Source: an uncultured Gammaproteobacteria bacterium
Lineage (GTDB): Bacteria > Patescibacteriota > Microgenomatia > Daviesbacterales > UBA10151
Assembly (NCBI GenBank): GCA_964405065.1
Contig: CAYOMO010000001.1
Location: 1-63,836, forward strand
Direction of reading: 5' to 3'
Length of the DNA: 63,836 nt
The position numbers and the translations under genes are program-made. The notes beneath the pieces are model-generated. The model was not told the origin of the DNA. It was given only the letters and a program-made list of their open reading frames with translations, and did no database searches. Within the stretch, counting starts at the first letter, position 1. Every line of letters begins with the position of its first letter. This document shows positions 11,806 to 63,836 of this stretch, piece by piece.

Positions 11806-11874
11806 CTTCCAACTATATTTAATGTATAGACTTAATGGTTATCATAAAATTTATTTTGTTTGCGATCTTGGAAG

Positions 11875-33158: not shown

Positions 33159-33174
33159 CTTGTGTAGCTGAATT

Positions 33175-33187
33175 TATACTATATACT
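33175..33187. promoter_or_regulatory. Tandem TATACT -10-like boxes in a ~37-nt divergent intergenic region
   Basis: TATACT at 33175-33180 and 33182-33187. The second lies 8 nt upstream of ATG 33196. The reverse complement reads TAGTAT/TATAGT toward the minus-strand acetyltransferase gene. Confidence 0.35.
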
Positions 33188-33195
33188 AGGTGAAA

Positions 33196-34242: not shown

Positions 34243-34269
34243 AAAATATGCTATTATCAAACCAGTTTT

Positions 34270-35391
34270 ATGAATAAAATGCAGGTGCCTTTGGTAAATC
34301 TTGTGGCAAATTACAATGGTATTAAATCTGAAATAGATAGAGCAATTGCCAAGGTAGTCGCGTCTGGTTCTTTTATACTAAACGATGTTGTTGCTGACTT
34401 TGAAAGTCAATTTGCCACTTACTGTGATTCTAATTATAGTGTTGGAGTTGCATCAGGTACAGATGCGCTTTATTTAAGTTTATTGGCTTTGGATGTGAAA
34501 AAAGGTGACGAAGTAATTGTTCCTGCAAATACCTTTATCGCCAGTGTTTATGCAATCCTGTATGCTGGTGCATTACCAGTAATTGTTGATGTTGATGAAA
34601 ATACCTCATCAATTGATGTTTTACAAGTTGAAAAAAAAATAACTTCAAAAACCAAAGTTATTATGCCTGTTCATTTATATGGTAAGCCGGCTGATATGGC
34701 CTCACTTAAAAAAATTGCTAAACAAAAAGGAATTGCAATATTAGAAGATGCCTGTCAAGCCCATGGAGCCATGTATCATGAAAAAAAAACAGGATCATTG
34801 GGTGATATTGCCGCTTTTAGTTTTTATCCTGGGAAAAATTTGGGTGCTTACGGTGATGCTGGAGCAATAACTACCAATTCAGCTTCTTTGATGAAAAAGA
34901 TAAAATCGCTGAGAGAATACGGAGCCAAAAAGAAATATTATTTTGATCAGATTGGATATAATAGCCGGTTAGATGCTCTGCAAGCCAGTATTTTGCGAGT
35001 CAAATTGAGACATTTGGATGTTTGGAATAAAAAACGTCAACGAGCTGTAGCCTATTATCAAAAAAATCTACTACAAGATTTACCATTTATAAAAACTTTC
35101 ACAGAAGATCCCAATGCTAAATCGGTATATCATTTATTTGTTATTCAGGTACCACAAAGAGATGTTTTACAAAAATATTTACTTGAGTATGGTATTCAGA
35201 CAGGTATTCATTACCCGGTGCCGGTTCATTTACAAAAGTCACTTGATTTCCTCGGATACACTAAAAATTCTTTTCCGATAGCTGAAAAATTAGCTTCAAG
35301 TATTTTATCTTTGCCATTATATCCTGAGATTACTAAAGATCAGCAAGACTGGGTGATCGAAAAGATAAGGGATTTTTATTTGCATGATTAA
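34270..35391 (+). CDS. DegT/DnrJ/EryC1/StrS-family PLP-dependent sugar aminotransferase
   Basis: 373 aa. Carries GTDALYLSLLALDVKKGDEVIVPANTFIAS, and FSFYPGKNLGAYGDAGAITT with the PLP-binding Lys. Confidence 0.88.
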   Translation: MNKMQVPLVNLVANYNGIKSEIDRAIAKVVASGSFILNDVVADFESQFATYCDSNYSVGVASGTDALYLSLLALDVKKGDEVIVPANTFIASVYAILYAGALPVIVDVDENTSSIDVLQVEKKITSKTKVIMPVHLYGKPADMASLKKIAKQKGIAILEDACQAHGAMYHEKKTGSLGDIAAFSFYPGKNLGAYGDAGAITTNSASLMKKIKSLREYGAKKKYYFDQIGYNSRLDALQASILRVKLRHLDVWNKKRQRAVAYYQKNLLQDLPFIKTFTEDPNAKSVYHLFVIQVPQRDVLQKYLLEYGIQTGIHYPVPVHLQKSLDFLGYTKNSFPIAEKLASSILSLPLYPEITKDQQDWVIEKIRDFYLHD

Positions 35392-37115: not shown

Positions 37116-39755
37116 ATGAAATTTAGTCAAACTGATCGCACCTTTTTGTTGATATTACTACTGTTAGTGGTGTGTCTTTTAGCCAGTTGGTTTAGACATG
37201 GAAATTTATTTATCGGAGCTGAAGAAGGAATTATTTTCCAAAGGATTGATTTGGTATATCAGAAAATGGTTTCTAGTGTCTGGCTTGATTTGTATTTGGG
37301 CGTACCTTATTTTAGCGATCTATCAAAAAGGCCACTATATGCATTTTTGACCTTACTATTTAATGTTGGCGCGCCGCCCTTTTTTTTGCAGGTAAGTATA
37401 TTTGGGTTGATTTTGATAGGGGCTGTAACTAGTACCTATCTACTTTTTAGAAAGAACTTTGGTTGGATTCGATTTCCGCGCTTGGTTGCTTTTTCTGGAG
37501 CTTTGTTTTATCTGAGCAATCCTTATGTGATTAGTCAAGTCTGGGCAAGAGGACTCTATCCTCAATTTTTTGCCTATCTGTATTACCCGGTTTTTTTACT
37601 TTTGATAGCATACTATTTTGATGCTAAAAAGCCCATTTATTTAATCATAAATTTAATTATTTCATTTGTATTTTCTGCAGCTATGGGAAACCCGAGCTAT
37701 GCAGTATCACTTTGGATACTTGTCAGCGGGTATTGGTTTTATAAAACATTTGAAAGTAATGGTTCATTTTTAAATAAATCTTTGCAAATAGTGATTCTTG
37801 GCTTTTTCTTGTTTGGTTGGGTAATAATAAATAGTTGGTGGCTGTTGGTAACAGTTTGGTATGCTCCAGCAGCTTTTTTAGGGAGTGGGAATGTTTTTGA
37901 AAATGCTTTATCTTCTTTGAGAGCAGTTAGCAGTCAATATTCGTTTTCATCAGTAATTAGACTATATCATCCGTTGCACTTTGAATCTTCGCTTTATTTT
38001 GGTATCTATAAAGCCAGTATATTTCAGTTTCTAAGTTGGATGGGAGTTGTAGTAATACTTTTTAGTCTGAGATTTATTCGTCAAAAAAGTATTCAGTTTT
38101 ATTTTGTAATGTTTTTGGTTGGTTTAGTTGTTTGTTTGGGATCTAATCAGCCATTTGGAGCTATTTTTGAATGGATATTTGTTCATTTTCCTCCACTACA
38201 AGTTTTTCGCAATCCATATGAAAAATTTGGACTAGTTTTTTTGCTGGCATATAGTGGGTTGTTTGGAGTTGGTATCACTGGGATATATATTTTTTTAAAA
38301 AAAATCAATAGCAGTTTAGCTTTTTTTTCAGTTGCAGTTTTATTAATTCTTATAACTGGAATATTTAATTGGCCATTATGGTCGAGTGAGGTGATTAGTT
38401 GGGGGAATGAAACAATTATTCCTAGTCGATATCGGTTACTTGATGATTGGCAGAAAAAAAACAATCCTACGGGCGGAAGAATTTTTTTTACTCCTTATTT
38501 ATCTAGCTTTGGTGCTTCATATAAGTGGCCAGGTGCTGATTATCATGGTAATGATCCTCTCTATCAACTGATAGATGCTTCTGTTTTAACTCAGACGGGG
38601 ACAAATCCTTATTTGATGGCTTTAAAACAGTATATTGGTCGTAAAAATTTAGTAGATTCGTTCCAAAGAATTGATGTGAAATATATTATTGATCGCTCGG
38701 ATATATATTCTACCAGGCAGGATAAAAAAAGTTTGGATTTTCTTACCGATAGCTTTTTTACCCCAGTACAACCGATGGGATCTATTTGCGAATCTTTGAA
38801 ATATGAGAATCATCATGTTACATGTTTGGTTCAGTCTTCTTTACAAGACATGTCTGAAGTCCAGAATATTCGTCTAGATTTCAAATCAGATGTGCCTGGA
38901 TATATAGAGGTATTTTTGGTCGATAAATATAATAACCAGCCTCGATGGAATGGGGAAAAAGAACAACAACTTCGTTATTCTATAGAAGATATTGGTCAAG
39001 TAAAAACAATTGATCTGTCGCTTTTTAATCCAACCGAAAATCCAGATACTGATTTTACTTCTATCAGACAAGTTGAAATATACTTTAGACCGCGAATCTT
39101 TTCGGATAATATTAATTTTCAAGTTATAAGTCTGGGTGTTGTTAAAGGTGAAAAGCAATTATTAGATTCTTATCATAAAATAGTTTCTTTAGATGGATTA
39201 AAAATTTATGGACCGAATCAGTCTGGTTTGATAAATCCAGTGAGAGCTTTTGCCCAGATTGCTTACACTGACTCATATGATCAGTTGTTTGATTCTTTTA
39301 AACACTCTTCAGAGACAGCTTATTTATTCAAATCTTCAAAGCTTGATGAATCTTTAACTGAAATACCTTTACAAACGGAGATTCAAACAATAAAAATGAA
39401 TCAGAATAAATATTTTGTTACTCTTCCCAAAGCTGGTAATTATTTTTTACGTCTAAATCAAAATTTCAATTCTGAATGGAAAGTAAAATATTTAAACTCT
39501 TCAAGTCATGTCAGTTTGACCTTTTTTGATCAATTAGCTTTGTTTTTATCATCTGATGTTGATTCTAATAAACACTTTTTAACTGATGGATATGCGAATG
39601 GTTGGTTGATAAAAGCTCAAAATCCAATTCAAATAGTTATCGTGTATAAACCACAAATTTTGCTAGATATTTTATGGCCGATTTCATTTGGTTTTTTTGG
39701 GTTTCTGATTTGCTTAGTAATCGGATTTTATGTATCTAAAAATAAGACGTTGTAA
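37116..39755 (+). CDS. Giant polytopic membrane protein, AftD/DUF3367-like GT-C candidate (paralog A)
   Basis: 879 aa. N-terminal ASWFRHGNLFIGAEEGIIF, ~14 hydrophobic segments, VFRNPYEKFGLVFLLAY, a ~400-aa soluble domain, and a C-terminal TM after GYANGWLI. Shares these landmarks with 56546-59812. Confidence 0.6.
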   Translation: MKFSQTDRTFLLILLLLVVCLLASWFRHGNLFIGAEEGIIFQRIDLVYQKMVSSVWLDLYLGVPYFSDLSKRPLYAFLTLLFNVGAPPFFLQVSIFGLILIGAVTSTYLLFRKNFGWIRFPRLVAFSGALFYLSNPYVISQVWARGLYPQFFAYLYYPVFLLLIAYYFDAKKPIYLIINLIISFVFSAAMGNPSYAVSLWILVSGYWFYKTFESNGSFLNKSLQIVILGFFLFGWVIINSWWLLVTVWYAPAAFLGSGNVFENALSSLRAVSSQYSFSSVIRLYHPLHFESSLYFGIYKASIFQFLSWMGVVVILFSLRFIRQKSIQFYFVMFLVGLVVCLGSNQPFGAIFEWIFVHFPPLQVFRNPYEKFGLVFLLAYSGLFGVGITGIYIFLKKINSSLAFFSVAVLLILITGIFNWPLWSSEVISWGNETIIPSRYRLLDDWQKKNNPTGGRIFFTPYLSSFGASYKWPGADYHGNDPLYQLIDASVLTQTGTNPYLMALKQYIGRKNLVDSFQRIDVKYIIDRSDIYSTRQDKKSLDFLTDSFFTPVQPMGSICESLKYENHHVTCLVQSSLQDMSEVQNIRLDFKSDVPGYIEVFLVDKYNNQPRWNGEKEQQLRYSIEDIGQVKTIDLSLFNPTENPDTDFTSIRQVEIYFRPRIFSDNINFQVISLGVVKGEKQLLDSYHKIVSLDGLKIYGPNQSGLINPVRAFAQIAYTDSYDQLFDSFKHSSETAYLFKSSKLDESLTEIPLQTEIQTIKMNQNKYFVTLPKAGNYFLRLNQNFNSEWKVKYLNSSSHVSLTFFDQLALFLSSDVDSNKHFLTDGYANGWLIKAQNPIQIVIVYKPQILLDILWPISFGFFGFLICLVIGFYVSKNKTL

Positions 39756-39784: not shown

Positions 39785-40810
39785 ATGAAAAAACATGAGC
39801 GCACATTTTTAATAAACGATACTTTAACTTCAGTAGTGGTAATTATTGATGATATTAATGTTTCCTTAATTGAAACTGTTAAAAAAATAGACCAAGTAAT
39901 TCAAAAAAAAACTCATCTTTATGAAATTGTATGTATTGACAATACTGGATATATTCTCGAGCAAGATCCGGTTTTATCTAGAATCCAGAAACAAAATTCA
40001 AATGTACGCTCCATAATTTTATCCAAAAAATATTCCAGAGACGTTGCAATCACGGTTGGGGTTGATTCGTGTATTGGGGATTACGTTATTTTTTATGATA
40101 CAAAGACTGACAGCCCTCAAGTATTACATTTATTTATTGATAATTTGGAAAAAGGATTTGATGTTGTAATTGGCAATCCTAAAAATCAGCAGGCAAGTTT
40201 GAGTTTGTTCAGTCGATTATTCTTGTCTATGGTAACTGCATTCTCTCGACAGGGGTATTTTTATCGTTCAAATCATTCACTGGCTTTAAATCGACGGGCT
40301 GTTCTCTCAATCACTCGCACTAGAAGAAAAAATCGCAACTTTACCTATTTGAATTCACTGATTGGACTAAAAAGACAGATCATCTCCTATGAAGGATTAT
40401 CCAATCAGTCTGCTAATGATCCTCGAACAGGTCTTTTTACAATTTTAAAAGTTGTTTTAGATGATGTGATATCCAATTCATTTAAGCCAATCAGATGGAT
40501 AAGTTTACTGGGTATGCTGGGAAGTACTTTGTTTTTATTGTATATTTTAGGCGTGGTTATCTTAATAATTGTCTTCCAAATGACTTGGATAGCCCCCCAG
40601 GGATGGATTAGTTTGGCGACAGTCATGGGAGCATTGTTTTTTTTACTTTTTTCTTTGCTGACTATTATGTCAGAATATTTAATTCGAATTATGGATGAGT
40701 CACGCAATGAACCACTTTATTTTATATCTCAGGAAAAGGATGGTTCTCACCGGATTTTTAAAAACCGCCAAAAAAGTCTGCAAAAAAAACTTAATATAAT
40801 AAAAATATGA
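39785..40810 (+). CDS. GtrB/CsbB-like membrane-anchored GT2 (polyprenyl-phosphate sugar synthase type) with atypical DxD region
   Basis: 341 aa. A GT-A domain followed by two C-terminal TMs and SEYLIRIMDESRNEPLYFI. This matches the GEYIGR..E...RP.YII ending of GtrB as I recall it. IVCIDNTG replaces the usual DDGS.D motif, and FYDTKTDSP sits where D-x-D-LQDP is expected. Confidence 0.6.
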   Translation: MKKHERTFLINDTLTSVVVIIDDINVSLIETVKKIDQVIQKKTHLYEIVCIDNTGYILEQDPVLSRIQKQNSNVRSIILSKKYSRDVAITVGVDSCIGDYVIFYDTKTDSPQVLHLFIDNLEKGFDVVIGNPKNQQASLSLFSRLFLSMVTAFSRQGYFYRSNHSLALNRRAVLSITRTRRKNRNFTYLNSLIGLKRQIISYEGLSNQSANDPRTGLFTILKVVLDDVISNSFKPIRWISLLGMLGSTLFLLYILGVVILIIVFQMTWIAPQGWISLATVMGALFFLLFSLLTIMSEYLIRIMDESRNEPLYFISQEKDGSHRIFKNRQKSLQKKLNIIKI

Positions 40811-44231: not shown

Positions 44232-44274
44232 GACTTGTGCTCTTAGGGGTTTAGTTTACAATATCCCTACCAAT

Positions 44275-50296: not shown

Positions 50297-50932
50297 ATGA
50301 AATTATCAACTATTCCTTTCAGTTATCACTGGATTTTAAAAAAAGCCATTGGACACCCTTCAACTATTCTTGATTTAGGATGTGGCGATGGTAATTTTTC
50401 CTACGATTTATTTAAAGACAGTAATTTTAAATTAACCGGTGTTGAATTGTATCCTGATTCAATAAAACGGGCGAAATTAAAAAAAATATATTCAAAAATA
50501 GTCAAAGGCGATATTCTGAATTTGCCAAAAACGCTTAAATCTTCTTATGATGTGGTTTTGGTCTCACAAGCTATTGAACATTTACCTAAAAAAAAGGGAC
50601 TTAAAGCAGTTCGGGAATGGGAAAAGAAAGGTAAAAAAATTATCATCTCGACACCGGTTGGATTTGTTCCTTTTCATCAGTTAGAACTGTCTGAGCAAGA
50701 CCAGAATCCTTATCAAAAACATCTTTCAGGATGGGAAGTTAGTGATTTTAAAAAAATGGGATATTCTGTATATGGACAGGGGTGGGGAGCTTTATATAGA
50801 AATCCATTTGTAAAAAAATTACCAGGCAGCTTTTTTCCTGTCATTAGTTTGATTTCGTTTCTGGTGTCACCGGTGATCTATTTTTATCCCCAATTTGCTA
50901 TGTATCAGATAGCTGTTAAGGAGAACCGATGA
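50297..50932 (+). CDS. Class I SAM-dependent methyltransferase with C-terminal hydrophobic tail
   Basis: 211 aa. Carries ILDLGCGDGNFSYDL and VVLVSQAIEHLPKKKG. The tail is FFPVISLISFLVSPVIYFY. Confidence 0.78.
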   Translation: MKLSTIPFSYHWILKKAIGHPSTILDLGCGDGNFSYDLFKDSNFKLTGVELYPDSIKRAKLKKIYSKIVKGDILNLPKTLKSSYDVVLVSQAIEHLPKKKGLKAVREWEKKGKKIIISTPVGFVPFHQLELSEQDQNPYQKHLSGWEVSDFKKMGYSVYGQGWGALYRNPFVKKLPGSFFPVISLISFLVSPVIYFYPQFAMYQIAVKENR

Positions 50933-51990
50933 GACAAATATATCCATTTGTTTCTGTAGTGATTCCAACCTATAATGCAGAGGCTTTTATTAACCAAGCT
51001 TTAAAAAGTGTTTTAAAAACAAATTATCCACACTTTGAAATTGTCATTGCTGATGATAGGTCAACAGACAATACGATAAAAGTAATACAACAACATTTTT
51101 CAAAAAATCCCAAAATTCATATTTACCGGAATAGGATCAAAAAGTTAGCCGCCGGGACTAGAAATGTTGGGATAACAAAATCACAAGGACCTTTGATTGC
51201 CTTACTAGATCATGATATTGAAGTAGATCCTGGGTGGTTGAAAGAGATGGTAATTGTAATGAATAAATATTCTGAATGTGGAGTAGTACAGGGCAAGGTA
51301 ATGGATATTAAAAACAGACAGATTATTCAGCATGCAGGGGTGAAAATTCATGCATCACTCGGATGGGTGATTCCTGTTGGTTTTGGTCTTAGCGGTAAAA
51401 AATTTTTTACTAAAGAAAAACAAGCTTTTGCAAATGCCACGGGGTTACTTTTTAAAAAATCAGTTTGGAAAAAAGTTGGTGGTTTTGACGAGATGTTAGA
51501 AATAAATACCGATGATTGGGATTTTAATTGGCGAACCAATTTATATGGTTTTAAGCATTATTTTGCGCCTCGTTCGATCACATATCATTGGTCTAAAACT
51601 CAACAAACTCGCGATGCCTGGATTAAAAGAACCAATTGGGAGTTTCACTTTGCCAAAGTACCCTGGATTTTTATCAAAAACTATGATTTTTTGAATATAC
51701 TGCGTTTTTTGCCAATATATTTACTGGTAAATTCTTTCAGAGGGGTATTTAATCTGATTTTTAGACTCAATCCAGCGCCCTTAGCAGGTTTTTTGTTATC
51801 ACTTGGATGGACGCTAAAGAATTTTCCGGATTTAATGAAAAAAAGACGTCAAGTCCAATCACATAGGATGATATCTGATAGACAGATGTTAACTTTATTT
51901 GAACAAACAAGTGTTTTTGATTACTTTCGAAAACATTGGCTGCAGGCTTTTAGATTTGGTAATAAAATATCAATTGAAAATCCATACTAG
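50929..51990 (+). CDS. Glycosyltransferase family 2 with C-terminal membrane region
   Basis: 353 aa. Preceded by an AAGGAG SD. Carries VSVVIPTYNAEAFINQALKSV, IVIADDRSTDNT, LLDHDIEVD and NTDDWDFNWR. Confidence 0.85.
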   Translation: MRQIYPFVSVVIPTYNAEAFINQALKSVLKTNYPHFEIVIADDRSTDNTIKVIQQHFSKNPKIHIYRNRIKKLAAGTRNVGITKSQGPLIALLDHDIEVDPGWLKEMVIVMNKYSECGVVQGKVMDIKNRQIIQHAGVKIHASLGWVIPVGFGLSGKKFFTKEKQAFANATGLLFKKSVWKKVGGFDEMLEINTDDWDFNWRTNLYGFKHYFAPRSITYHWSKTQQTRDAWIKRTNWEFHFAKVPWIFIKNYDFLNILRFLPIYLLVNSFRGVFNLIFRLNPAPLAGFLLSLGWTLKNFPDLMKKRRQVQSHRMISDRQMLTLFEQTSVFDYFRKHWLQAFRFGNKISIENPY

Positions 51991-51993
51991 ATT

Positions 51994-52875
51994 ATGCAAA
52001 GATGTGTCATTTGTGAAAATAGCTTTAGCTCTCAAAAAAAAATTGCAGCACGTGATGGGTATTATTATTTGATTTGTCCTGTTTGTTCAGGCGGTAATTT
52101 AATGCCACGAAAAAAAGCTTTGAAGGCTTTAAAGAACGCTTATCTGAGTCAGTATTTTGATTGGAAAGAAGCTGTTGGATTGCGGAAATATCTCAATCAG
52201 TTACAACTTTTTAAAAGCTATCCTGAATGGATTGAACAAACTGTTGGTAGAAATAAAGGTAAAGTACTTGATATTGGAGCTGGAGTCCCGAATTTTGTTT
52301 ATACCATGAAAAAAAATGGTTGGGATAGTTATGCTCTTGAGATATCAAAAGAACAGGTAAAACTGATCAAAAAGTATATTGATCCTAAAAAGGTGTGGCA
52401 GGGTGATTTTGAAATAAAACGGATTCCTAGGGATACTTTTGATGTTTTAACTTTTTGGCATATGTTGGAACATCTGACATATCCAGCAAAAGCAATCAGA
52501 AAATCTTCTCGGGTATTAAAAAATAATGGAATGCTTTTTGCTGAATTTCCAAATTTAAATTCGTCCAATTTGGCTCTTTTTAAGACCGATTATTGTCATT
52601 TTGATTTGCCGGGTCATTTAGTCTATTATAATAAAAAATCACTGGAGAATTTATTTACTAAAAATGGTTTTAAAAACATTAAAATATCCTACCCGCTTAA
52701 ATTAAACGGTTCTTTTAGTCTGAATCTGATGAGATGGGTAAACACTTATATTCGTTTTCCTTTTGTCGGTGTGATAGTTTTTTACATGACTCTTCCTGTA
52801 TCTATATTATTAACAGTGATTAATTCGTTTTTGGGAAAAACAGATTTGATGAGAATTAGTGCTGTTAAAGCTTAA
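51994..52875 (+). CDS. SAM-dependent methyltransferase with N-terminal Cys4 zinc-ribbon
   Basis: 293 aa. CVICEN...CPVCSG, followed by VLDIGAGVPNFVYTM, LTFWHMLEHLTYP and LKNNGMLFAEFPN. Confidence 0.78.
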   Translation: MQRCVICENSFSSQKKIAARDGYYYLICPVCSGGNLMPRKKALKALKNAYLSQYFDWKEAVGLRKYLNQLQLFKSYPEWIEQTVGRNKGKVLDIGAGVPNFVYTMKKNGWDSYALEISKEQVKLIKKYIDPKKVWQGDFEIKRIPRDTFDVLTFWHMLEHLTYPAKAIRKSSRVLKNNGMLFAEFPNLNSSNLALFKTDYCHFDLPGHLVYYNKKSLENLFTKNGFKNIKISYPLKLNGSFSLNLMRWVNTYIRFPFVGVIVFYMTLPVSILLTVINSFLGKTDLMRISAVKA

Positions 52876-54789: not shown

Positions 54790-56544
54790 ATGATCATCCT
54801 TGGAATTAATAACTCACATCTTTCAACAGCAGCTCTTTTAGTAAACGGAAAACTTGTGGCTTGTATTTCCGAAGAACGATTGTCTAGGATCAAAAATCAG
54901 TCGGGACTTCCTGTAAAAGCGGTTAAAGAGGTCTTAAGAATCGCTAAAATAAAACCTAAGCAAGTAGATTACATTGTTTTTGGTTTTAAAGATCCCCAAA
55001 TTAATACTGGATATTCAGTTTATCCTACAACTTTACCAACAACTGGTTTTTCATTGACACAATTTATTTGGCAACTCAAGGAAGCTCTTTTAGCGGCTGT
55101 CCCTGTAAGTAGATATATATACCAAAGTTTAATTGGCCCCTATTATCAGCTATTTATGAATCGACAATTGGATTTGCAGCTTAGTTTGGATGTTCAAAAA
55201 AAGTTGGGAATTGGTTCAGACAAAATTATTAAATGTGATCATCATACAGCTCATGCCGCGGCAGCTTTTTATTCATCGGCTGATCACAGTAATGGCAAAA
55301 AATTAATTTTTACTTTGGATGCAATGGGGGATGGTCTCTGTGCTTCGGTTTCACAATCTGAAAATGGGGTTATGACTAGAATAGCTGCGACCAAAGCAGG
55401 TAATTCTTTAGGGGACTTATATGCGTATGTCACTTCCTATTTGGGTCTTAAAAGGGGAGAACATGAATTTAAAGTAATGGGTTTAGCTCCGTATGCCTCA
55501 GAAAAACATTTTATACCTTTGTATAAAAAGCTGAGAAAAATGATTTGGGTTAATGATGATTTAACATTTTCAACTAGTGTTTATTCGCACGTTTTTTATA
55601 AGAAATTAGACAAATTATTTTTACATCAACGATTTGATAATGTCGCTGGGGCGGTTCAAAAAGTGACAGAGGATTTATTGAAAGAATGGATTTCAAAATC
55701 GATCAAACAAACAGGTATTAAAGATATTATTTGTGGGGGTGGGGTATTTATGAATGTTAAAGCTAATCAGTTGATTTTGGAAATGCCTATGGTTCAAAGT
55801 ATGTTTATTGTTCCTAGTTGTGGTGATGAATCAACTGCATTTGGTGCGGCATTTTGGGCTTATCAAAAATATGCTAATTCCGCCAAATACCCGATTCAAC
55901 CATTACGGGAGTTGTATCTGGGGTCGGTTTTTACCGATAGAGAGATTCAATCAGAGTTGAAAAAAAATAAATATCGAGCTTTGAAAATAAATAGGTATAC
56001 TGATATCGAAAAAGAAGTGGCAAAGATCTTGTCAGAGGGTGGAATAGTGGCTAGGTTTAAAGGTCGAGCCGAATGGGGAGCCAGATCACTTGGGAACAGA
56101 TCTATTTTGGCCAATCCATCCCATTTTGGAGTAATAAAAGAGATAAATGATCAGATTAAATCACGAGATTTTTGGATGCCCTTTGCCCCTTCGATTAAAT
56201 CTGAAAATTTAGAAATATATGTCACAAATCCAAAAAAGATGAAAGTTCCCTATATGATTATTACTTTAAATTCGACATCCAAAGGACAGCAAGAATTAAT
56301 TGCTGCTATGCACCCTTATGATGGGACCTTAAGACCCCAAGAGGTATACCAAGACTGGAATCCGGATTATTGGCATTTAATAAATGAGTTTGAGAAATTG
56401 ACAGGTATAGGAGGGGTATTAAATACTTCTTTTAATTTGCATGGTTTTCCAATAGTTCAAACACCAGAAGATGCACTTGATGTCTTACTTAGATCAGGTT
56501 TGAAGCATTTAGCTATTGGATCATTTTTAGTATCCAAAAAATGA
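54790..56544 (+). CDS. NodU/CmcH-family carbamoyltransferase
   Basis: 584 aa. Carries IILGINNSHLSTAALLVNGKLVACISEERLSRIKN, CDHHTAHAAAAFYSS and WGARSLGNRSILANP. Confidence 0.88.
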   Translation: MIILGINNSHLSTAALLVNGKLVACISEERLSRIKNQSGLPVKAVKEVLRIAKIKPKQVDYIVFGFKDPQINTGYSVYPTTLPTTGFSLTQFIWQLKEALLAAVPVSRYIYQSLIGPYYQLFMNRQLDLQLSLDVQKKLGIGSDKIIKCDHHTAHAAAAFYSSADHSNGKKLIFTLDAMGDGLCASVSQSENGVMTRIAATKAGNSLGDLYAYVTSYLGLKRGEHEFKVMGLAPYASEKHFIPLYKKLRKMIWVNDDLTFSTSVYSHVFYKKLDKLFLHQRFDNVAGAVQKVTEDLLKEWISKSIKQTGIKDIICGGGVFMNVKANQLILEMPMVQSMFIVPSCGDESTAFGAAFWAYQKYANSAKYPIQPLRELYLGSVFTDREIQSELKKNKYRALKINRYTDIEKEVAKILSEGGIVARFKGRAEWGARSLGNRSILANPSHFGVIKEINDQIKSRDFWMPFAPSIKSENLEIYVTNPKKMKVPYMIITLNSTSKGQQELIAAMHPYDGTLRPQEVYQDWNPDYWHLINEFEKLTGIGGVLNTSFNLHGFPIVQTPEDALDVLLRSGLKHLAIGSFLVSKK

Positions 56545-56545: not shown

Positions 56546-59500
56546 ATGAAAGCTTTTTCTGACTTCAGATATTTTCTGGTAATTGCTTTAATTAGTTTTT
56601 TGACGGTATCTATTTGGTTTAGGCATGGATATCAGCTGGGTACTGCTGAAGGTGGACTCCCATTTAATAATTTACAGCGTCATGCTGAAATTTTTCGTTG
56701 GGCTTGGGGGGATGGAGCGATGGGAAATTCAACCAGTTTTTTGGTCGCCTCATATCCGACATATTTTTTCCTATCTCAGTTTGAAAAGATCGGTGTGTCT
56801 GGTTTTATTATTGAGGCAACTGTTTTTTGGTTCATTCTAACTACTTCTGGAATTGGTATATTTCTGATTGCCCGAAGAATAGCAATTATTACGGGAGGTT
56901 TTTCTTTATTTGCAGTGTTTTTTTATTGGTTATCACCATTCGTATTGGTAAATGTTTGGAACCGGTTTTTATACAATCACATTTTTTTTCTTGCTCTTTT
57001 ACCACTTTGTTTTTATACCTATTGGAGAGGAATTCAGCAAAAAAAATATTCTTATCTTTTTTTGACCGTTTTGATTACGTTTTTTTATAGTTATGCGCTT
57101 ACCGCATTGGCTCTAACTACGCTACTTTTTATTGTATTTGGCTTTGTGAGTATTTATTGGATAGTTATTTTCAAAGCCCGTAATTTAAAGTTTATTTTTT
57201 TGTATAATTTACTGTTTGGATTCACTTTTGGTTTGGTTCACGCTTGGTGGCTGTCTCAGCTATTATTTATCGGTTCGTCGGCAAATTTTGCGGAGTCGGT
57301 TAGTTCATTTTTCTCTACGGAGGGCAATATCAGTGGTTTAACTGAAATAAGTCGGAAGCTGGGATCATTTATTGATCTGACGCGATATATCCATTTCAAT
57401 TTTTTCTATGATCATTCGGCTCCCTGGTCAGAGGCTTTAAGTTCACAATTGGCTTTTATTTTAAATTCAATCATTTTATTTGTTACCTTCATTGGTATTG
57501 TATTGGGTCGGAAAAATAAAGTGATATTGTTTTTTGCTTTATTCTTTTTGTTGTCTTTTTTCTTATCCAAAGGAAATAGTCCACCTTTTGGGGAATTGTA
57601 TACCTACTTTTTTGTTAAGATTTCTTTCTTGCAAATCTTTCGAAATCCCATCGAAAAAATTGGTTTAATTTCAGTTTTTTGCGGGTCACTAATAACTGCC
57701 TATGCTCTTGATGGTTTGCATCAGCGATATATCGCAAATTATACACAGAGATTTGAAGGTCGAAATTATTTACTGATCTTTCCATTACTATTGATTGGCA
57801 TTTTTTGGGGCTGGCCATTTTTTTCTGGAATTATGTTTTCTGTCTATAAAAATACGGCTGGAGAGGTAGCTTTATATCAAAGTTTAGTCCCTAGCTATTA
57901 CAAAGAGGCTGATATTATGATGTCTCAGGATGCTAGTATTTCCAGATTTCTGGCGTTGCCTTTGATGGGGGAAGGTATTACCTATGAATGGCCTATTCAT
58001 TATAGCGGAATTGATATTTATAGTACCCTTTTTCATAAACAAAATATTGCTCTTAATACAACGATTCCTTTTTATAATCAGGTAATTTATCAATTGGTTA
58101 GTTATCAATTAAAGCCAGATCTGGTCTACTTTTTGCCATATCTTGCAGTGGATCACATTCTGTTACGACGTGACGTAGCTTTTCAAGAACGTGCTTATCC
58201 CGATCCTTCACAAACTGAAGAGAATTTAAAACAACTTGAGAGTAAACAGTTAGTTAAAAAAGAGGTCGATTTTGGAGAGTTGTCGCTTTATCAGGTAGAG
58301 AAGTCTCTAAATTGGGGGAAATTTTATACTACCAACCAAATTGTTTTTACGAATGGAGTAGATTTTGCCAAAATGACAGATGGTGTTTCTGAACACAAAA
58401 GGGTATATATCAATCCTTTAATGTTTAAATCATTGCCAATTGACCCGATGGAAATACAGCTTTTTCCGGATAAGATAACATCGTACAATTGGTTGAAACC
58501 ATATCAATCTTATAACGATCAAAATTTATACGATAAATTAGTATATGTGAAGCATTCGCCCGATGATGTGATTTACCCATTTGTTAGATCCAAAGAATTA
58601 TTAACATCACTATTATATGCTGACTATCCAAAATGGGTTTTATTTAATATTAATTTATTAGGTAAACGAGCAGTTGAAATTTGTCGATATGATACAAATG
58701 CAGTTCAACCATCTAAAGAAAATAAGTTGGTCGAAAATTATCAAGCGGAGTTTCAGAATTTACAGGACCATATTCAACGGATTTCAAATGAGAATCGAGC
58801 ATTAAAGAGTGAAATATTTCAGTCTGTTATTACTCAGGCATTACTTTTGGATCGTTGTCAAAAAATAAATATAAATTTTTTCTTAGATTTTTTTGCTGAA
58901 GTCGGTATTATTTCGCCTTTTTCCAAACAGATCAGTTATGAAAATTTAACTGATGTCTCGTATCAGGTGCCTCAGTCAGGAAGTTATCTGGTAAAGAATG
59001 ATTTTGGCCAAGATTCAGATCAAATTCCAATTATTTTGACCCAGGGGAATTATAAAAAGCAGTTTTTAGAGGATGATACTTACACTAAACAAGTTGTGGC
59101 AGAATTTTCTGATTTTACGATTGATTCTAAATGGGTAGATTCTGAGCCGATAGAAATTGAGGATTATAATGCGCTGTATTCAGTAAAAGTTGATTATCAG
59201 ATTCAGTCAGGTGATTTTATGGCAATTTATGCCAAGCAAGATAACGATCCAAAATCTCAACCACGTTATTTAAATGAGTTACCAGCTCAGAATACTCAGT
59301 TTTCCATTGAGTTTTCTCCTTCATTGGGGGCAAAATATTTTCAGATTGGGATAACTGGTGATAAAAATGAATATTGTAAAGATAAATGCTCTGCACATCA
59401 AAATTCGCTTAAACTTTATGTGAAAAAGTTGGAGATTATAAAAAAAACATTTCAGTTGCCACATTTTGTTTTAAAGCAGAAAAAACCGATTCAGGAATCG

Positions 59501-59812
59501 TTGATAAGTTGGAGTAAGAAATCGCCAGTTGAATATGAGATAACAGTTAACAAAACTGATTCTCAGCCTGAGATTTTGGTATTTTCTGAATTGTTTGGTC
59601 AAGGATGGGAAATTCAAGGACAATCTTTCCAGCATATTTTAGTAAATGGATTTGCAAATGGTTGGATTTTAGATAAAGCAGGAACTTTTAAAACAACAGT
59701 CTATTATTTACCTCAAAGAAATCTTGATTTGGGTTATCAAATATCATTTGGAGCTTTATTCGCAACGATAAGTATTCTTTGGGGAGTAAAAAAATATGAA
59801 AAACATCGTTAA
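56546..59812 (+). CDS. Giant polytopic membrane protein, AftD/DUF3367-like GT-C candidate (paralog B)
   Basis: 1088 aa. Carries SIWFRHGYQLGTAEGGLPF and IFRNPIEKIGLISVF. A ~650-aa soluble region follows, then a C-terminal NGFANGWIL plus a TM. Confidence 0.6.
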   Translation: MKAFSDFRYFLVIALISFLTVSIWFRHGYQLGTAEGGLPFNNLQRHAEIFRWAWGDGAMGNSTSFLVASYPTYFFLSQFEKIGVSGFIIEATVFWFILTTSGIGIFLIARRIAIITGGFSLFAVFFYWLSPFVLVNVWNRFLYNHIFFLALLPLCFYTYWRGIQQKKYSYLFLTVLITFFYSYALTALALTTLLFIVFGFVSIYWIVIFKARNLKFIFLYNLLFGFTFGLVHAWWLSQLLFIGSSANFAESVSSFFSTEGNISGLTEISRKLGSFIDLTRYIHFNFFYDHSAPWSEALSSQLAFILNSIILFVTFIGIVLGRKNKVILFFALFFLLSFFLSKGNSPPFGELYTYFFVKISFLQIFRNPIEKIGLISVFCGSLITAYALDGLHQRYIANYTQRFEGRNYLLIFPLLLIGIFWGWPFFSGIMFSVYKNTAGEVALYQSLVPSYYKEADIMMSQDASISRFLALPLMGEGITYEWPIHYSGIDIYSTLFHKQNIALNTTIPFYNQVIYQLVSYQLKPDLVYFLPYLAVDHILLRRDVAFQERAYPDPSQTEENLKQLESKQLVKKEVDFGELSLYQVEKSLNWGKFYTTNQIVFTNGVDFAKMTDGVSEHKRVYINPLMFKSLPIDPMEIQLFPDKITSYNWLKPYQSYNDQNLYDKLVYVKHSPDDVIYPFVRSKELLTSLLYADYPKWVLFNINLLGKRAVEICRYDTNAVQPSKENKLVENYQAEFQNLQDHIQRISNENRALKSEIFQSVITQALLLDRCQKININFFLDFFAEVGIISPFSKQISYENLTDVSYQVPQSGSYLVKNDFGQDSDQIPIILTQGNYKKQFLEDDTYTKQVVAEFSDFTIDSKWVDSEPIEIEDYNALYSVKVDYQIQSGDFMAIYAKQDNDPKSQPRYLNELPAQNTQFSIEFSPSLGAKYFQIGITGDKNEYCKDKCSAHQNSLKLYVKKLEIIKKTFQLPHFVLKQKKPIQESLISWSKKSPVEYEITVNKTDSQPEILVFSELFGQGWEIQGQSFQHILVNGFANGWILDKAGTFKTTVYYLPQRNLDLGYQISFGALFATISILWGVKKYEKHR

Positions 59813-60155
59813 ATATTTCAGACAAAATAAAATAAAAAAAATAATGGTCATTTTGTTTTTATTGATTCTTGGTATTAATTATATTTATGGTTACAGATAT
59901 TCAATCCCTTTAATTGACAATTTGGTTTATAAAAACAGTTACTATCCTTTGGTTTTTTTATGGATCGGATTGGTCTGGTGTTGGAAATTATCAGAAAAAT
60001 TTTTGTTTAAAATCGGTTTTATATTATTTTTTTTCTCCAGTTTTTATCAATTGATTGATAAACGAATTGTTGCTGAAATATTAATGAGTTACTGTCTATT
60101 AGTTTTTTTAACTGCTACGATATTATCAATTAAAAAGAGTATTTCAAATGAATAG
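59796..60155 (+). CDS. Small four-TM membrane protein, unknown function
   Basis: 119 aa. Four hydrophobic segments (IMVILFLLILGINYIYG, YYPLVFLWIGLVWCW, FKIGFILFFFSSFYQL, ILMSYCLLVFLTATILSI). Overlaps the upstream gene by 17 nt. Confidence 0.6.
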   Translation: MKNIVKYFRQNKIKKIMVILFLLILGINYIYGYRYSIPLIDNLVYKNSYYPLVFLWIGLVWCWKLSEKFLFKIGFILFFFSSFYQLIDKRIVAEILMSYCLLVFLTATILSIKKSISNE

Positions 60156-60327
60156 AATAGTCCTGTTGTTTGCTTTAATATTTGTTTTGCATTTATTTGC
60201 AGCTATTTTTTTGGTCTTAACCAACCATCATGGTTGGCTTTATCCGATTTTTAGAAATATTTTTTACGGAACTATTTTAATCACTTTAATCGATATTTTT
60301 TATTTATTTACAACTTCTAAAAAATGA
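60148..60327 (+). CDS. 59-aa two-TM mini-protein (not in the supplied ORF track)
   Basis: Hand translation gives MNRIVLLFALIFVLHLFAAIFLVLTNHHGWLYPIFRNIFYGTILITLIDIFYLFTTSKK*. The ATG overlaps the upstream TAG by 8 nt, and its TGA forms an ATGA junction with the next gene. It exactly fills the gap between the two neighbours. Confidence 0.5.
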   Translation: MNRIVLLFALIFVLHLFAAIFLVLTNHHGWLYPIFRNIFYGTILITLIDIFYLFTTSKK

Positions 60328-62951
60328 AAATCTTTGTGATTGTTTTATTACTATTTTGGATAGGACTTCTACCATTTTGGAAAGCCGCTCATGACTTGCC
60401 CTACTCTTCGCAATCTTTTGTTGCAAGTCAATTACAGCTACCAACTGCTTGGAATGCAGTTGGTGGTGTTTTTGGTCAAAACCAGTTGGCAACTTTATGG
60501 TCCTGGCCAAATAATACTGTCTATTCACTAGGAGCTTCGATAGGTATTAGTTTTAATTGGTTAATCCCTTTACTGGGCATATTACCGGTTTTAATAATTG
60601 GTTTTTGGGGGATGTATTTTTTTTCCGGCATTTTTATGGCTAGTCGAGATGCTCGGTTGATAGCGGCGCTTTTTTTTCTGACAAATTCCTATATTTTGCT
60701 AGTTATCGACGGTGGGCAACTTTTATGGGGTTTGGCTTATGGAATTATTCCCTGGTGTTTAGTTACATTCTATCGTTACATCAACCAAAAGCGGCATGTT
60801 GGCTGGTTTTTATTCTGCTTTATTCTGCTTAGTTTTGCTGATCTCAGAGCGATTTATCTTTTAGGAATTATTTTAGTGATCTATTTATTAATAGAGATTT
60901 TAAGAAAACCACAAATTGGTTATTTGGTGTTTTTTATTAGGGTATTACTGGCTGGTTTATTAGCTGTTTTATGTTTAGTCCTATTGCATGCTTACTGGTT
61001 ATTACCACTTTTGATGTCGCAATCTTCAGTATTGCCTTCAAATTTATCAATTTCTTCGGAGGCAGATTTTTTATCTTTTATTAGTTTGAGTCATGCTTTT
61101 GTTTTACAACAGCCACACTGGTATTTAAATATCTTTGGTCAACTGCAACCTATTAGATTGGAGTTTATCTGGATACCTCTGCTGATTATTCCAATTTTTA
61201 TAAATAAAAGATGGTTGAATGTTCAGTTGCTGGTAATTCTGTTGGTTGGAGTATTTTTGGCGAAGGGAAATCAACCGCCTTTGGGGAGTTTATATGCACA
61301 TTTACTAAATTACATTCCGGGATTTTTTTTATTTCGAGATTCAAGTAAATTTTTTATTCTTATTGCTTTGGTTTATGCTGTTTCAGTTGGATTGTTGGTT
61401 CAGCAATTGGAAGATGCGAGGGGGCGTTTTAAAAAGTATTCCCGTTTGTTAGTCGGAGTTGTAGTAGCGCTTGTCGTTTTGATGGTTTGGCCTACTTTTA
61501 CTGGTCAAATGACAGGTTTGCTTGGTTTTTCTAAGCAAGTAGCTGAATATCAGCAGCTCGAGCAAATTTTAAAAACTGACTCATCAGAAGGTCGGGTATT
61601 GTGGATTTCTTCTAAACCACCGCTAGGGTATATGGATCAGTCAAATGTAGCCATAAATGCCGTTGATTTGATAGGTCTTCGACCTTTTAGTACTGGAATC
61701 AGGGGGACTTATGAAACACTCAACTTTTTGCGAGAAGCTTCTTATTCTGGACAGTTGTTACAAATTTCTGGAATAAAAAAGCTGGTTTATGCTTTTCCGG
61801 ATCCCAATAAAAAATACAAAGTAGATGAACAAGATTATTATGATCTGTTCTTGCAGCAATTGCAGGGTAGAGACTGGGTTTCTCCTACTGAGAACAGTCA
61901 GGTTTTAAATCTTCAAAAACCACAGCCTTTATTTCATATTCCACAAAATTATTATTTGGTAGTTGGTTCTGATGCTCTATATGGTGAGTCCACTCTATCT
62001 GCCCAGCAGAATCTTGTCAACAATGGATTAATTTTTGTAGAAGAAGAAATCTCTCCTGATCTCAATACAAATCTATTGAAACATCCAGTACTTTTATATA
62101 AAAAAGAACTTCTTGATGTAGCTATGCAGCTAGTTGATCCAAAGTACTTTTATTTTCCAAGCCAAATACTGAATTCATCTCCAAACCAAACTGGCTGGTG
62201 GAAAAGAGATACCGGTGACTTTTTATCATTTCATGATTTTTTAAAACAGAAATATCAGATCGAGAATACTGATTTTGACTTGAGAGGAGGATGGGCAGTA
62301 TCTGAAGGTCAAAACTCTCTAACAATTTCGAAAAAAGGAACACCAAATGATATTGTTCTAATCAGGCTGTTAGAAAGTAGTAGAAGTGGTGAATTGAGTG
62401 TTGAAGCAGACAATCAGAGTATTAAAAAGCTAAATACTAGTCAGGGGAAAGATCAAGTTCAGTGGCGAATTGTCGGATCAGCCGAAAAAGATTTTTCCCA
62501 GCTGACTTTAAAAACTACTGGTGATATACATTTGGTGAATGCTATTGCGATAGTCCCTAAGGCCATATTTAATCAAAGGTTACACCAGGTTGAAAGCATA
62601 CCAAAATTCTATACTAAGCTTGGAGAAAATGATGCTAATGACTCTCAAGCAAAAGTTGTTTTTGAAAAATTAAATGATGATCAGTATCAGCTTGAAGTCA
62701 CGAATCTAAGCAAACCTTCTCTGATCGTTTTTAATCAAAGATATGATCCGAAATGGACAATAAATGGTCAGCCAGCAATTCCAGTTTATTCAATTTTTAA
62801 TGGATTTTTTATTGATAAAAATGGTACATATTTAGTCGAATATAGCCCACATCGATACCTCTTTTTAGGCGGAATGATTAGTACTGGGAGTTTACTGCTT
62901 TTAATAGGCAGTGTAGTGTATAGATATTATGCAGATACGAGAAAAAATTAA
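60324..62951 (+). CDS. Giant polytopic membrane protein, AftD/DUF3367-like GT-C candidate (paralog C, more divergent)
   Basis: 875 aa and multi-TM. Carries LFRDSSKFFILIALVY. A ~430-aa soluble region follows, then YDPKWTINGQPAIPVYSIFNGFFI plus a C-terminal TM. Confidence 0.55.
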   Translation: MKIFVIVLLLFWIGLLPFWKAAHDLPYSSQSFVASQLQLPTAWNAVGGVFGQNQLATLWSWPNNTVYSLGASIGISFNWLIPLLGILPVLIIGFWGMYFFSGIFMASRDARLIAALFFLTNSYILLVIDGGQLLWGLAYGIIPWCLVTFYRYINQKRHVGWFLFCFILLSFADLRAIYLLGIILVIYLLIEILRKPQIGYLVFFIRVLLAGLLAVLCLVLLHAYWLLPLLMSQSSVLPSNLSISSEADFLSFISLSHAFVLQQPHWYLNIFGQLQPIRLEFIWIPLLIIPIFINKRWLNVQLLVILLVGVFLAKGNQPPLGSLYAHLLNYIPGFFLFRDSSKFFILIALVYAVSVGLLVQQLEDARGRFKKYSRLLVGVVVALVVLMVWPTFTGQMTGLLGFSKQVAEYQQLEQILKTDSSEGRVLWISSKPPLGYMDQSNVAINAVDLIGLRPFSTGIRGTYETLNFLREASYSGQLLQISGIKKLVYAFPDPNKKYKVDEQDYYDLFLQQLQGRDWVSPTENSQVLNLQKPQPLFHIPQNYYLVVGSDALYGESTLSAQQNLVNNGLIFVEEEISPDLNTNLLKHPVLLYKKELLDVAMQLVDPKYFYFPSQILNSSPNQTGWWKRDTGDFLSFHDFLKQKYQIENTDFDLRGGWAVSEGQNSLTISKKGTPNDIVLIRLLESSRSGELSVEADNQSIKKLNTSQGKDQVQWRIVGSAEKDFSQLTLKTTGDIHLVNAIAIVPKAIFNQRLHQVESIPKFYTKLGENDANDSQAKVVFEKLNDDQYQLEVTNLSKPSLIVFNQRYDPKWTINGQPAIPVYSIFNGFFIDKNGTYLVEYSPHRYLFLGGMISTGSLLLLIGSVVYRYYADTRKN

Positions 62952-63836
62952 CCAGCTTGTTTTACTCATTCAAACTAAAACTTTTAGACAAAGTCTTTTG
63001 ACGGTATCAACTGTTGGAATAAATGGTATTTTGGGAGCTATCTTTTTTATCTGTATTGCGCGAATGTTAGGGCCCTCTGAGTATGGGGTTTTTGCTTTAG
63101 CAATTGCTTCATTAACACTGATAGCTGACATTGCTGATTTTGGTACCAATACCGGTATTGTTAGATTTGTGCCAGGTTTAATTAAACATCAACCTGCAGA
63201 TGCTTATCGGATGCTGAAGCTGAGTTTGGAGATAAAAGCAGTGGTTTGGTGTTTGGTGTTGCTGGTGGGATTTTTCCTGATTCCATTTATTGTTATCACT
63301 ATTTTTGGGAAAGTTGAGCTAATTTTTCCACTTCAGTTGAGTTTAATTGGAGTGGGCGGAGCAATGTTTTATACTTATACCCAGTCAGTACTCCAGGCTT
63401 TTGAAAAATATCGTTTATGGAGTTTTTTAAATCTTTTTACCAATGGTTTACGGCTTTTCATTACATTGGTTTTGAGTGTTCTAGTTGGTTTGAATGTATT
63501 TAGCGGTTTGCTGCTTTATATCAGTATTCCTTTTATTGGATTTTTAATTGGTTGTAGTTTGTTGCCAATTCGTCAGATTGTATCAGCCCAGAAAGAGACA
63601 AATTTATTCAAAGATTTTCGTTCTTACAACAGTTATATTGCCATCTTTACTTTAATTGCGGCTTTTTCGAACAGAATTGATATGTATCTTGCCGCCAAGT
63701 TACTAAACCCTGATGAGGTTGGTATCTACGGTGCTGCTGTGCAGCTGAATTCATTTATTCCACAAATAATGGGCGGGCTAGGAGTGGTAGTAGCTCCAAA
63801 GTTTGCTTCTTTTACCACGCAACATCAAATGATTGG
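62929..63836 (+). CDS. Wzx/MOP-superfamily flippase, 3'-truncated by the window edge (not in the supplied ORF track)
   Basis: ATG at 62929, frame open to the end of the window. MQIREKINQLVLLIQTKTFRQSLLTVSTVGINGILGAIFFICIARMLGPSEYGVFALAIASL carries the same LGPS(D/E)YG N-terminal motif as the flippase at 21651-22916. Overlaps the upstream gene by 23 nt. Confidence 0.7.
   Translation, partial: MQIREKINQLVLLIQTKTFRQSLLTVSTVGINGILGAIFFICIARMLGPSEYGVFALAIASLTLIADIADFGTNTGIVRFVPGLIKHQPADAYRMLKLSLEIKAVVWCLVLLVGFFLIPFIVITIFGKVELIFPLQLSLIGVGGAMFYTYTQSVLQAFEKYRLWSFLNLFTNGLRLFITLVLSVLVGLNVFSGLLLYISIPFIGFLIGCSLLPIRQIVSAQKETNLFKDFRSYNSYIAIFTLIAAFSNRIDMYLAAKLLNPDEVGIYGAAVQLNSFIPQIMGGLGVVVAPKFASFTTQHQMI

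Follow-up and report, generated by a model that had tools for sequence, protein, structure and literature searches.

A 63,836-nucleotide stretch of DNA (contig CAYOMO010000001.1, positions 1 to 63836; termed the window) encodes three very large membrane proteins, A, B and C, that are likely to be GT-C-fold integral-membrane glycosyltransferases of the AftD branch within a surface-glycan island. A and B flank two mini-proteins, m1 and m2 (Table 1). The window is from a Microgenomates-group (Patescibacteria) bacterium, and its 64 kb form a single glycan-assembly island with nearly all genes on the + strand. A first-pass annotation, made by a model from the sequence alone, had described five + strand open reading frames (ORFs), with two mini membrane ORFs between A and B, and its coordinates are all exact. 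The genes of A, m1, m2 and B form a single operon and are translated together, as their stop and start codons overlap: the m1 ATG lies 17 nucleotides inside the end of A, the m2 ATG overlaps the m1 stop by 8 nucleotides, and the m2 stop and the B start share a 4-nucleotide ATGA. The stop of a NodU-like carbamoyltransferase gene is 1 nucleotide from the A start. The four proteins A, m1, m2 and B probably work together.

A, B and C are homologous on sequence comparison, with a likeness far beyond chance. A and C share 25% identity over 559 amino acids (aa), plus a C-terminal block (BLASTP, E 2e-28), and the A-family profile aligns with C at a probability of 100% and E 1e-56 (hhalign). For A and B, BLASTP finds two matching regions, the core (E 5e-8) and the C-terminus (E 1e-7), and the two family profiles align over 544 columns (hhalign probability 100%, E 7.4e-54). 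The direct match of C with B is weak (E 0.004); the link between these two thus runs through A, and B is the divergent member. The third paralog that the first-pass annotation had seen at 37116 is therefore a genuine one, and the landmark motifs it listed are all found where it had placed them, i.e., WFRHG...AE(G/E)G in A and C, the motifs that begin with FR and those at the C-terminus. In several related loci three or more tandem AftD-like paralogues surround B (L017 at 2893-13000, also L024, L025 and L014), with an A-like gene, B and another A-like gene in that order in L017, which points to repeated local duplication of the family.

The fold of A and B was predicted with AlphaFold2 from family alignments. 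The models have a mean predicted local distance difference test score (pLDDT) of 91.2 and a predicted TM-score (pTM) of 0.87 for A, and 88.4 and 0.83 for B. The top Foldseek match in the PDB is the same for both, Mycobacterium abscessus AftD (6W98_A), at E 3e-15 and TM-score 0.51 for model A, and E 6.3e-12 and TM-score 0.53 for model B. Later matches are the GT-C enzymes STT3, PglB, AglB, DPY19 and AftA, mostly oligosaccharyltransferases. No transporter or protease fold is present among the significant PDB matches of A and B, and so the non-GT-C membrane core that the first-pass annotation had set against its own reading was not found. Both models display a polytopic core with a membrane-proximal alpha/beta domain, as is typical of the GT-C(A) fold. 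For C, the fold is inferred from its hhalign match to the A family, and the same overall architecture is apparent from hydropathy. The proposal that these are large extracytoplasmic transferases is thus supported at the level of fold.

At the level of protein families, A matches the Pfam model PF11847 (GT-C_AftD, formerly DUF3367) over aa 70-565 with 19.2 bits and E 3.3e-4. The model is matched by 32 of 39 members of the A/C family (E<=1e-3; best 5e-15), several of the close homologues of A and of C are listed with a precomputed match to it, and NCBI names a Daviesbacteria homologue (P0066) 'alpha-(1->3)-arabinofuranosyltransferase family protein'. Because the score of A itself is sub-threshold and most of its relatives match, membership in PF11847 holds at the family-profile level only. 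The lack of a significant DUF3367/GT-C match, which the first-pass annotation had named as a further ground for refuting its reading, was likewise not borne out. YfhO (PF09586), the other family the first-pass annotation had suggested, was rejected; there is no Pfam YfhO match in A, B or C, and the A-family profile aligns with the YfhO protein of the window (334-2760) at a probability of only 35% (hhalign).

The domain anatomy is known from secondary structure (DSSP) of the models. A consists of a helical membrane core (~1-427), an alpha/beta soluble GT-C domain (432-650), a helical bundle (651-785), beta-sandwiches (801-1054) and a C-terminal transmembrane (TM) helix (1055-1087). B follows the plan of A without the helical insert, with a membrane core (~1-392), a soluble region of alpha/beta fold and beta-sandwiches (406-840, the sandwiches at 657-840) and a C-terminal TM helix (841-874). 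The C-terminal TM helix of C is at aa ~847-876. The beta-sandwiches of A and B show local matches to the sugar-binding families CBM4-2, CBM6, CBM32 and GH2 (probability ~1.0) and, as modelled, are compatible with binding of a glycan. The helical insert of A (651-785; 58496-58900) may relate to DUF5667, as PF18915 is matched by 5 of 39 family members. Stand-alone DUF5667 proteins of ~160 aa are found in related islands (L003 3989-4471; L084 14708-15202).

An acidic residue is conserved in the first extracytoplasmic loop, and it is situated right after TM1 in the models of A and B. At this position the A family (n=70) has Glu in 66 members and Asp in two, the B family has Asp (D24) in 48 of 48, and the C family has Glu (E36) in 16 of 17. 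A joint core alignment of 135 sequences from all three families reveals nine further columns in common, given here in the order A/B/C: W54/W43/W56, G60/G51/G62, P153/P143/P158, W235/W225/W242, G343/G315/G342, P347/P319/P346, R366/R338/R365, K371/K342/K370 and D543/D493/D529. The essential residues of AftD include K39 and D41 of the first loop, as well as E251, K361 and D474 (bioRxiv 10.1101/2019.12.22.885152). By analogy with AftD D41 and with the general GT-C mechanism, Glu35 of A is a candidate catalytic residue.

The B family is related to a different named protein. B matches the NCBIfam model of MmpA (NF053599) with 51 bits over aa 293-436, which correspond to model positions 270-406; the equivalog cut-off of this model is 210 bits for the whole protein. 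Over the same ~140 residues the model is matched by 47 of 48 B-family members, with a best E of 1.2e-15, well below the cut-off. A and C do not match the MmpA model. Pfam coverage of the B family (n=48) is near nil, with one YfhO, one PTPS_related and one PF11847 match. Among 1.84 billion cluster representatives (clusters at 50% identity), the B-family profile detects 12,617 at E<=1e-3, a count that will include A-type proteins, and 2,809 at E<=1e-30. On these comparisons the B family is very large, separate from A/C, without a Pfam model and nearer to MmpA.

MmpA (Rv0226c/NCgl2761), a membrane protein of mycobacteria and corynebacteria, is partly homologous to AftD in the region of the first 11 TM helices of AftD; it is essential in mycobacteria, its gene is near aftD, and its discoverers report no homologues outside Corynebacterineae (PMC8698533). 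B resembles MmpA over the ~140 residues, and MmpA is likewise a polytopic protein similar to the AftD N-terminus and encoded near aftD, so that the pairing of A with B mirrors that of AftD with MmpA. B differs from MmpA in being nearly twice as long and in having a large soluble domain with beta-sandwiches.

Homology, fold, residue conservation, synteny and the fusion of m2 with B are shown by these comparisons; for catalysis, the lipid-phosphate donor, the acceptor and the complex, we infer the following scheme. A cytoplasmic GT2 would load a sugar onto polyprenyl phosphate, and the lipid-linked sugar would be flipped outward, for which the adjacent Wzx/MOP protein and possibly m1/m2 are candidates. 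The GT-C membrane core would bind the lipid-linked sugar. Its active site, on the outer membrane face, would consist of the invariant F-R-(N/D)...K loop together with the conserved acidic residue of the first loop (A E35, B D24 and C E36). From there the sugar would pass to an acceptor on the cell surface, either a growing glycan or a glycoprotein. This acceptor may be held by the alpha/beta and beta-sandwich ectodomains, with the C-terminal TM helix as their tether, and m1 and m2 may join A and B in a complex.

For C, the candidate loading enzyme is the ArnC/PgfS-like GT2 encoded at 39785, directly after C. It aligns end to end with the NCBIfam models PgfS (84.7 bits) and ArnC (67.8 bits), both below cut-off, and is a probable polyprenyl-phosphate-sugar synthase that would supply the donor. 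Three-component extracytoplasmic glycosylation systems also pair a synthase with a GT-C enzyme (PMC11127046), and by this analogy the pairing at C supports a lipid-phosphate sugar donor better than any other feature of the gene context. The lipid-linked donor sugar of C is possibly an amino sugar. The C homologues of L084, L085 and L086 all have a pair of genes a short way upstream, one for a GT2 of ~350 aa with one TM helix and one for a DegT-type aminotransferase; the pair is directly adjacent to the C homologue in one locus, and elsewhere up to three further sugar-modification genes are in between.

The likeness to three-component systems (GtrB/GtrA/Gtr*, CsbB/GtcA/YfhO, PgfS/PgfM, ArnC/ArnEF/ArnT) extends to the MOP flippase that adjoins B, to the small membrane proteins that adjoin the GT-C genes, and to the C-terminal beta-sandwich as a presumed carbohydrate-binding module (CBM), as in the GT136 protein ORF12 (PMC11127046). 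In contrast to these systems, there are two GT-C paralogues per operon, m1 and m2 do not resemble GtrA/GtcA (Pfam) or SMR proteins (hhalign with EmrE), and A, B and C match neither YfhO nor PMT_2 in Pfam. PMT_2 matches are found in neighbouring genes of the window.

How close A, B and C are to AftD has to be considered together with other explanations. They share with AftD (Rv0236c; 6W98 of M. abscessus) the GT-C core, the alpha/beta domain, beta-sandwich modules, a return TM helix and the acidic first-loop residue. AftD has 16 TM helices: a core of 11, then TM12, and at the C-terminus a four-helix bundle to which acyl carrier protein binds. Its soluble part comprises three CBMs and a structural beta-sandwich (bioRxiv 10.1101/2019.12.22.885152). 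The automatic name of P0066 implies that A, B and C are true AftD orthologues, arabinofuranosyltransferases that use decaprenyl-phospho-arabinose, and the PF11847 matches and the rank of AftD as best structural match are in line with this. It is nevertheless very improbable. In the structural alignment they are only ~10-11% identical to AftD, the phylum is a different one, and no sequence match to AftD chains in the PDB was detectable. AftD has ~1400 aa and A, B and C have 875-1088, i.e., 300-500 residues fewer; a single C-terminal TM helix follows their soluble domain in place of TM12 and the four-helix bundle; and their soluble modules differ in number and identity from those of AftD, with the helical-bundle insert present in A. 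No UbiA-type phosphoribosyltransferase and no DprE1/DprE2-like genes are present among the annotated ORFs of the window. In view of the single C-terminal TM helix, the low identity and the lack of arabinose-donor genes in the window, A, B and C are AftD-like in fold and are not AftD orthologues. Of the DUF3367/AftD resemblance that the first-pass annotation had noted, the GT-C fold and the top match to 6W98 thus stand, and orthology and the arabinofuranosyltransferase role do not. The label 'arabinofuranosyltransferase' is unjustified; where it is given automatically to these proteins of the candidate phyla radiation (CPR), it should be read as a name for the fold and no more. It is also unlikely, less markedly so, that B and possibly A represent a non-catalytic scaffold or lipid-handling protein that has retained the GT-C fold. 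The near-universal MmpA match in the B family is consistent with such a role, as MmpA was reported to have no recognisable catalytic domains and to be a possible membrane anchor (PMC8698533); AftD itself has a protein-partner role with TmaT, but the same 2026 preprint proposes that MmpA may be a glycosyltransferase (bioRxiv 10.64898/2026.07.31.741767). Against a scaffold, B keeps the first-loop Asp in all family members together with the invariant R338, D339 and K342, and its MmpA score is far under the cut-off. Neither mycolate nor trehalose-lipid synthesis is known from Patescibacteria, and the MmpA phenotype, trehalose mycolate handling, has no counterpart there.

A further explanation concerns the substrate. 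A and/or B might move Wzx-flipped undecaprenyl-diphosphate oligosaccharides en bloc onto a polymer or protein, as a polymerase, ligase or oligosaccharyltransferase, instead of transferring single sugars from polyprenyl-monophosphate. A Wzx/MOP flippase gene is found directly after B in the window and in 38 of 56 related loci, no Wzy or WaaL family could be recognised in the window, and STT3, PglB and AglB are the second-tier structural matches. However, MOP-family flippases are also able to export polyprenyl-monophosphate sugars (PMC11127046), the best structural match by a wide margin is AftD, which transfers single sugars, and the WWDxG hallmark of the oligosaccharyltransferases STT3, PglB and AglB is missing, with no WWD in A, B or C. 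The polytopic proteins encoded at 6117, 44230 and 47086 could themselves be the polymerase or ligase. En bloc transfer is regarded as rather unlikely. The assignment of A, B and C to GT-C-fold glycosyltransferases of the AftD branch is preferred, and several points weigh against it. None of the three attains the PF11847 gathering threshold of 26 bits, and B and C have no Pfam match at all. Sequence searches of the PDB with A, B, C, P0066 and the A-family profile did not reach AftD, nor any other meaningful chain, so that the tie to the solved AftD structure rests on the predicted fold and the Pfam model. The CBM-like matches are weak (E 3e-3 to 0.1); of the glycan-binding soluble domains proposed in the first-pass annotation, the beta-sandwiches and the local CBM-like matches are found, and these are no proof of binding. 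The equivalence of E35/D24 and R366/K371 to AftD K39, D41, K361 and D474 is putative. MmpA, the nearest named family of B, has no demonstrated transferase activity (PMC8698533). No family member has a known donor, acceptor or activity, and none is from a cultured organism.

The gene order around A and B is conserved. In close relatives, where A identity is 43-82%, the order carbamoyltransferase-A-m1-m2-B is unchanged and wzx directly follows B, except in L003. A wider sample comprised 56 species-representative loci with full-length B. A large GT-C paralogue ends <=1.5 kb upstream of B in 29 of these, and the ~500-bp gap in the 29 loci almost always contains an ORF of 105-125 aa with 3-4 TM helices, at the m1 position, and an ORF of 50-70 aa with two TM helices. 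Carbamoyltransferase genes are present upstream of A in only 6/56. A search from the A side (tblastn, L087-L107) shows that a GT2 of ~350 aa and a methyltransferase of ~290 aa recur just upstream of A. The A-m1-m2-B(-Wzx) arrangement is kept in Daviesbacteria, Woesebacteria and Amesbacteria loci and in further Patescibacteria metagenome-assembled genomes; the named taxa of the loci, Daviesbacteria, Woesebacteria, Amesbacteria, Levybacteria and Gottesmanbacteria, belong to Microgenomates within Patescibacteria. GT2-methyltransferase-A-m1-m2-B-Wzx is a recurrent Microgenomates module. A literature search found nothing relevant on PF11847 or AftD-like proteins in Patescibacteria. The enzyme class is already known and the A/C family is captured by PF11847; as far as the searchable literature shows, the module, the two mini-protein families and the MmpA-linked B family are new.

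The mini-proteins differ in their degree of conservation. Copies of m1 that are 69% and 46-49% identical occur at the same position in L001 and L003. Among more distant relatives, position, length and topology are kept and little of the sequence, with a mean column identity of 27% in the alignment (A4); a Glu often precedes the last TM helix. The m1 family (n=25) has no Pfam family and no GtrA-like or SMR match at E<=1. As a GtrA/SMR flippase homologue m1 was rejected, with Pfam support in 0 of 25 members and a hhalign probability of 0.1% with an EmrE sequence entered by hand; a flippase of this kind is possible only as an analogy. In relatives of m2, an H-x-G turn is present between the two TM helices. 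Seven of the 150 best B-type representatives have an N-terminal extension of 58-85 residues, which is matched by the m2 hidden Markov model (HMM) in five, at 28.7 bits in P0222 and 7-14 bits in P0247, P0236, P0264 and P0267, with controls at <2 bits. As judged by these scores, some lineages have m2 fused to B, an argument for a joint action of the two proteins. In L035, a single ORF of 178 aa appears to join m1 and m2.

One of ~315 relatives, P0265, has four extra TM helices after the C-terminal one, recalling AftD. The idea that m1 represents a split-off TM13-16 of AftD was followed up; the m1 HMM scores 8.8 bits on the extra TM helices of P0265 and 7.6 bits on an unrelated TM region, and this is not above noise.

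Paired GT-C paralogues are found adjacent to each other in the Emb and PMT systems. As with EmbA-EmbB and Pmt1-Pmt2, A and B are homologous GT-C genes adjacent in one operon, which suggests a heterodimer. The known pairs differ in that they have no known counterpart of m1 and m2. By analogy, A, m1, m2 and B might constitute a multi-subunit extracytoplasmic glycosylation machine specific to Microgenomates, with a GT-C heterodimer and two mini-subunits, and reflect an ancient AftD-MmpA-like unit; this proposal is speculative and rather improbable as a whole. In such a machine, m2 would be an extra N-terminal hairpin of B, the four-TM m1 would replace a detached C-terminal four-helix bundle of AftD, and the pairing of AftD-like with MmpA-like proteins would be an ancient unit common to Patescibacteria and Mycobacteriales. 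If true, it would provide a non-mycobacterial handle on the function of MmpA-type proteins.

Patescibacteria have tiny genomes, are mostly unculturable, and their envelope building is poorly known. For a small-genome lineage, 64 kb of glycan assembly is a very large investment. Within Microgenomates the AftD branch of these enzymes has become diverse, and together with two unannotated mini-proteins it makes up a conserved operon module there. The only named relative of B is MmpA, a protein reported as restricted to Corynebacterineae (PMC8698533). If the A-B pairing is functional, comparison with the CPR module could help to interpret the AftD/MmpA locus, which is relevant to tuberculosis drug targets. 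The gain in annotation is more modest than this possible insight.

Table 1. Positions of the genes, residues and motifs of the AftD-like proteins and of adjoining genes in the window (nucleotide positions unless marked aa).
Feature	Position	Strand	Description	Basis
Gene A	56546..59812	+	1088 aa, likely AftD-like GT-C glycosyltransferase	ORF call, Pfam, AlphaFold2, Foldseek
m1	59796..60155	+	119 aa mini-protein, 3-4 TM	ORF call, position kept in relatives
m2	60148..60327	+	59 aa, 2-TM hairpin, H-x-G turn (LTNHHGW)	ORF call, HMM
Gene B	60324..62951	+	875 aa, divergent AftD/MmpA-like GT-C-fold protein	hhalign, AlphaFold2, Foldseek
Gene C	37116..39755	+	879 aa, A-type third paralogue	BLASTP, hhalign
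A Glu35	56648..56650	+	first extracytoplasmic loop acid, candidate catalytic base	codon-level check
B Asp24	60393..60395	+	invariant first-loop acid	codon-level check
Motif WFRHGYQLGTAEGG	A aa 24-37	+		codon-level check
Motif WFRHGNLFIGAEEG	C aa 25-38	+		codon-level check
Motif FRNPIEKIG	A aa 365-373, 57638..57664	+	R366, K371 invariant across all three families	
Motif FRNPYEKFG	C aa 364-372	+		codon-level check
Motif FRDSSKFF	B aa 337-344, 61332..61355	+	R338, D339, K342 invariant	
Motif GFANGWIL	A aa 1035-1042	+		codon-level check
Motif GYANGWLI	C aa 825-832	+		codon-level check
Motif NGFFI	B aa 826-830	+		codon-level check
GT2, then methyltransferase	50929..52875	+	353 aa and 293 aa; pair recurs upstream of A-type genes	Pfam
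NodU-like carbamoyltransferase	54790..56544	+		Pfam Carbam_trans_N, Carbam_trans_C; NCBIfam NodU sub-cutoff
Wzx/MOP-family flippase	62971..63836	+	5' part, cut by contig end	Pfam Polysacc_synt 8.5e-19
GT2 after C	39785..40810	+	two C-terminal TMs (~ aa 245, 277); directly after C	
GT2, then DegT-type aminotransferase	33190..35391	+	GT2 of 350 aa with one C-terminal TM	Pfam

Just upstream of A, at 51994-54693, are two methyltransferase genes and a gene for an AT3-family acyltransferase (53602-54693, - strand). A mycobacterial locus comprises aftD, tmaT (AT3), mmpA and mtrP (bioRxiv 10.64898/2026.07.31.741767). The parallel with this locus was rejected; AT3 adjoins A in the closest relative only, so it is not a conserved feature, and the resemblance is probably coincidental. 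In L001, GT2 genes are found downstream of B, and BLASTP of their products with the DPM-like GT2 of the window was uninformative.

Two gene sets surround C. The region just upstream (31569-37015) resembles the WbpB/E/D/I route to a di-N-acylated sugar, with genes for a UDP-GlcNAc 2-epimerase-like protein, a hexapeptide acetyltransferase (- strand), a GFO/IDH/MocA 3-dehydrogenase-like protein, a DegT aminotransferase and a formyltransferase (- strand). This cassette is kept in L084 and L086. After C and its GT2, the region 40807-44231 carries an RmlD/epimerase-like gene, a xylose-isomerase-like TIM barrel gene (sugar epimerase-like), a second GT2 gene whose product resembles dolichyl-phosphate hexose transferase, AglJ and PpgS, and an FAD oxidoreductase gene (- strand). 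The set is also present in L086 and could be a route that modifies the lipid-linked sugar.

Three polytopic proteins of the window have no Pfam match and are candidates for a Wzy-type polymerase or ligase. They are encoded at 6117-7424 (435 aa, ~6 TM), 44230-45933 (567 aa, ~9 TM) and 47086-49398 (770 aa, ~13 TM). The 567-aa and 770-aa proteins have no NCBIfam match, and kinship with the A and B families was rejected by hhalign, for the protein at 47086 with the A-family profile and for that at 44230 with the B-family profile. The gene for the 770-aa protein is conserved after a GT4 gene in related islands.

Many of the third-party annotation assemblies in which these Microgenomates-type loci are found (L004-L135) bear the title 'uncultured Gammaproteobacteria bacterium', and these records look systematically mislabelled. 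The window encodes 13 GT-C-type membrane glycosyltransferases, including A, B and C. The others are a YfhO protein (334), a GT87-like protein (4750), a PIG-V-like protein (20503) and PMT_2 proteins at 7434, 9987 (- strand), 11860, 13556, 15244, 16896 and 22879. Also present are ~10 GT2, five GT4, two Wzx and at least seven methyltransferase genes.

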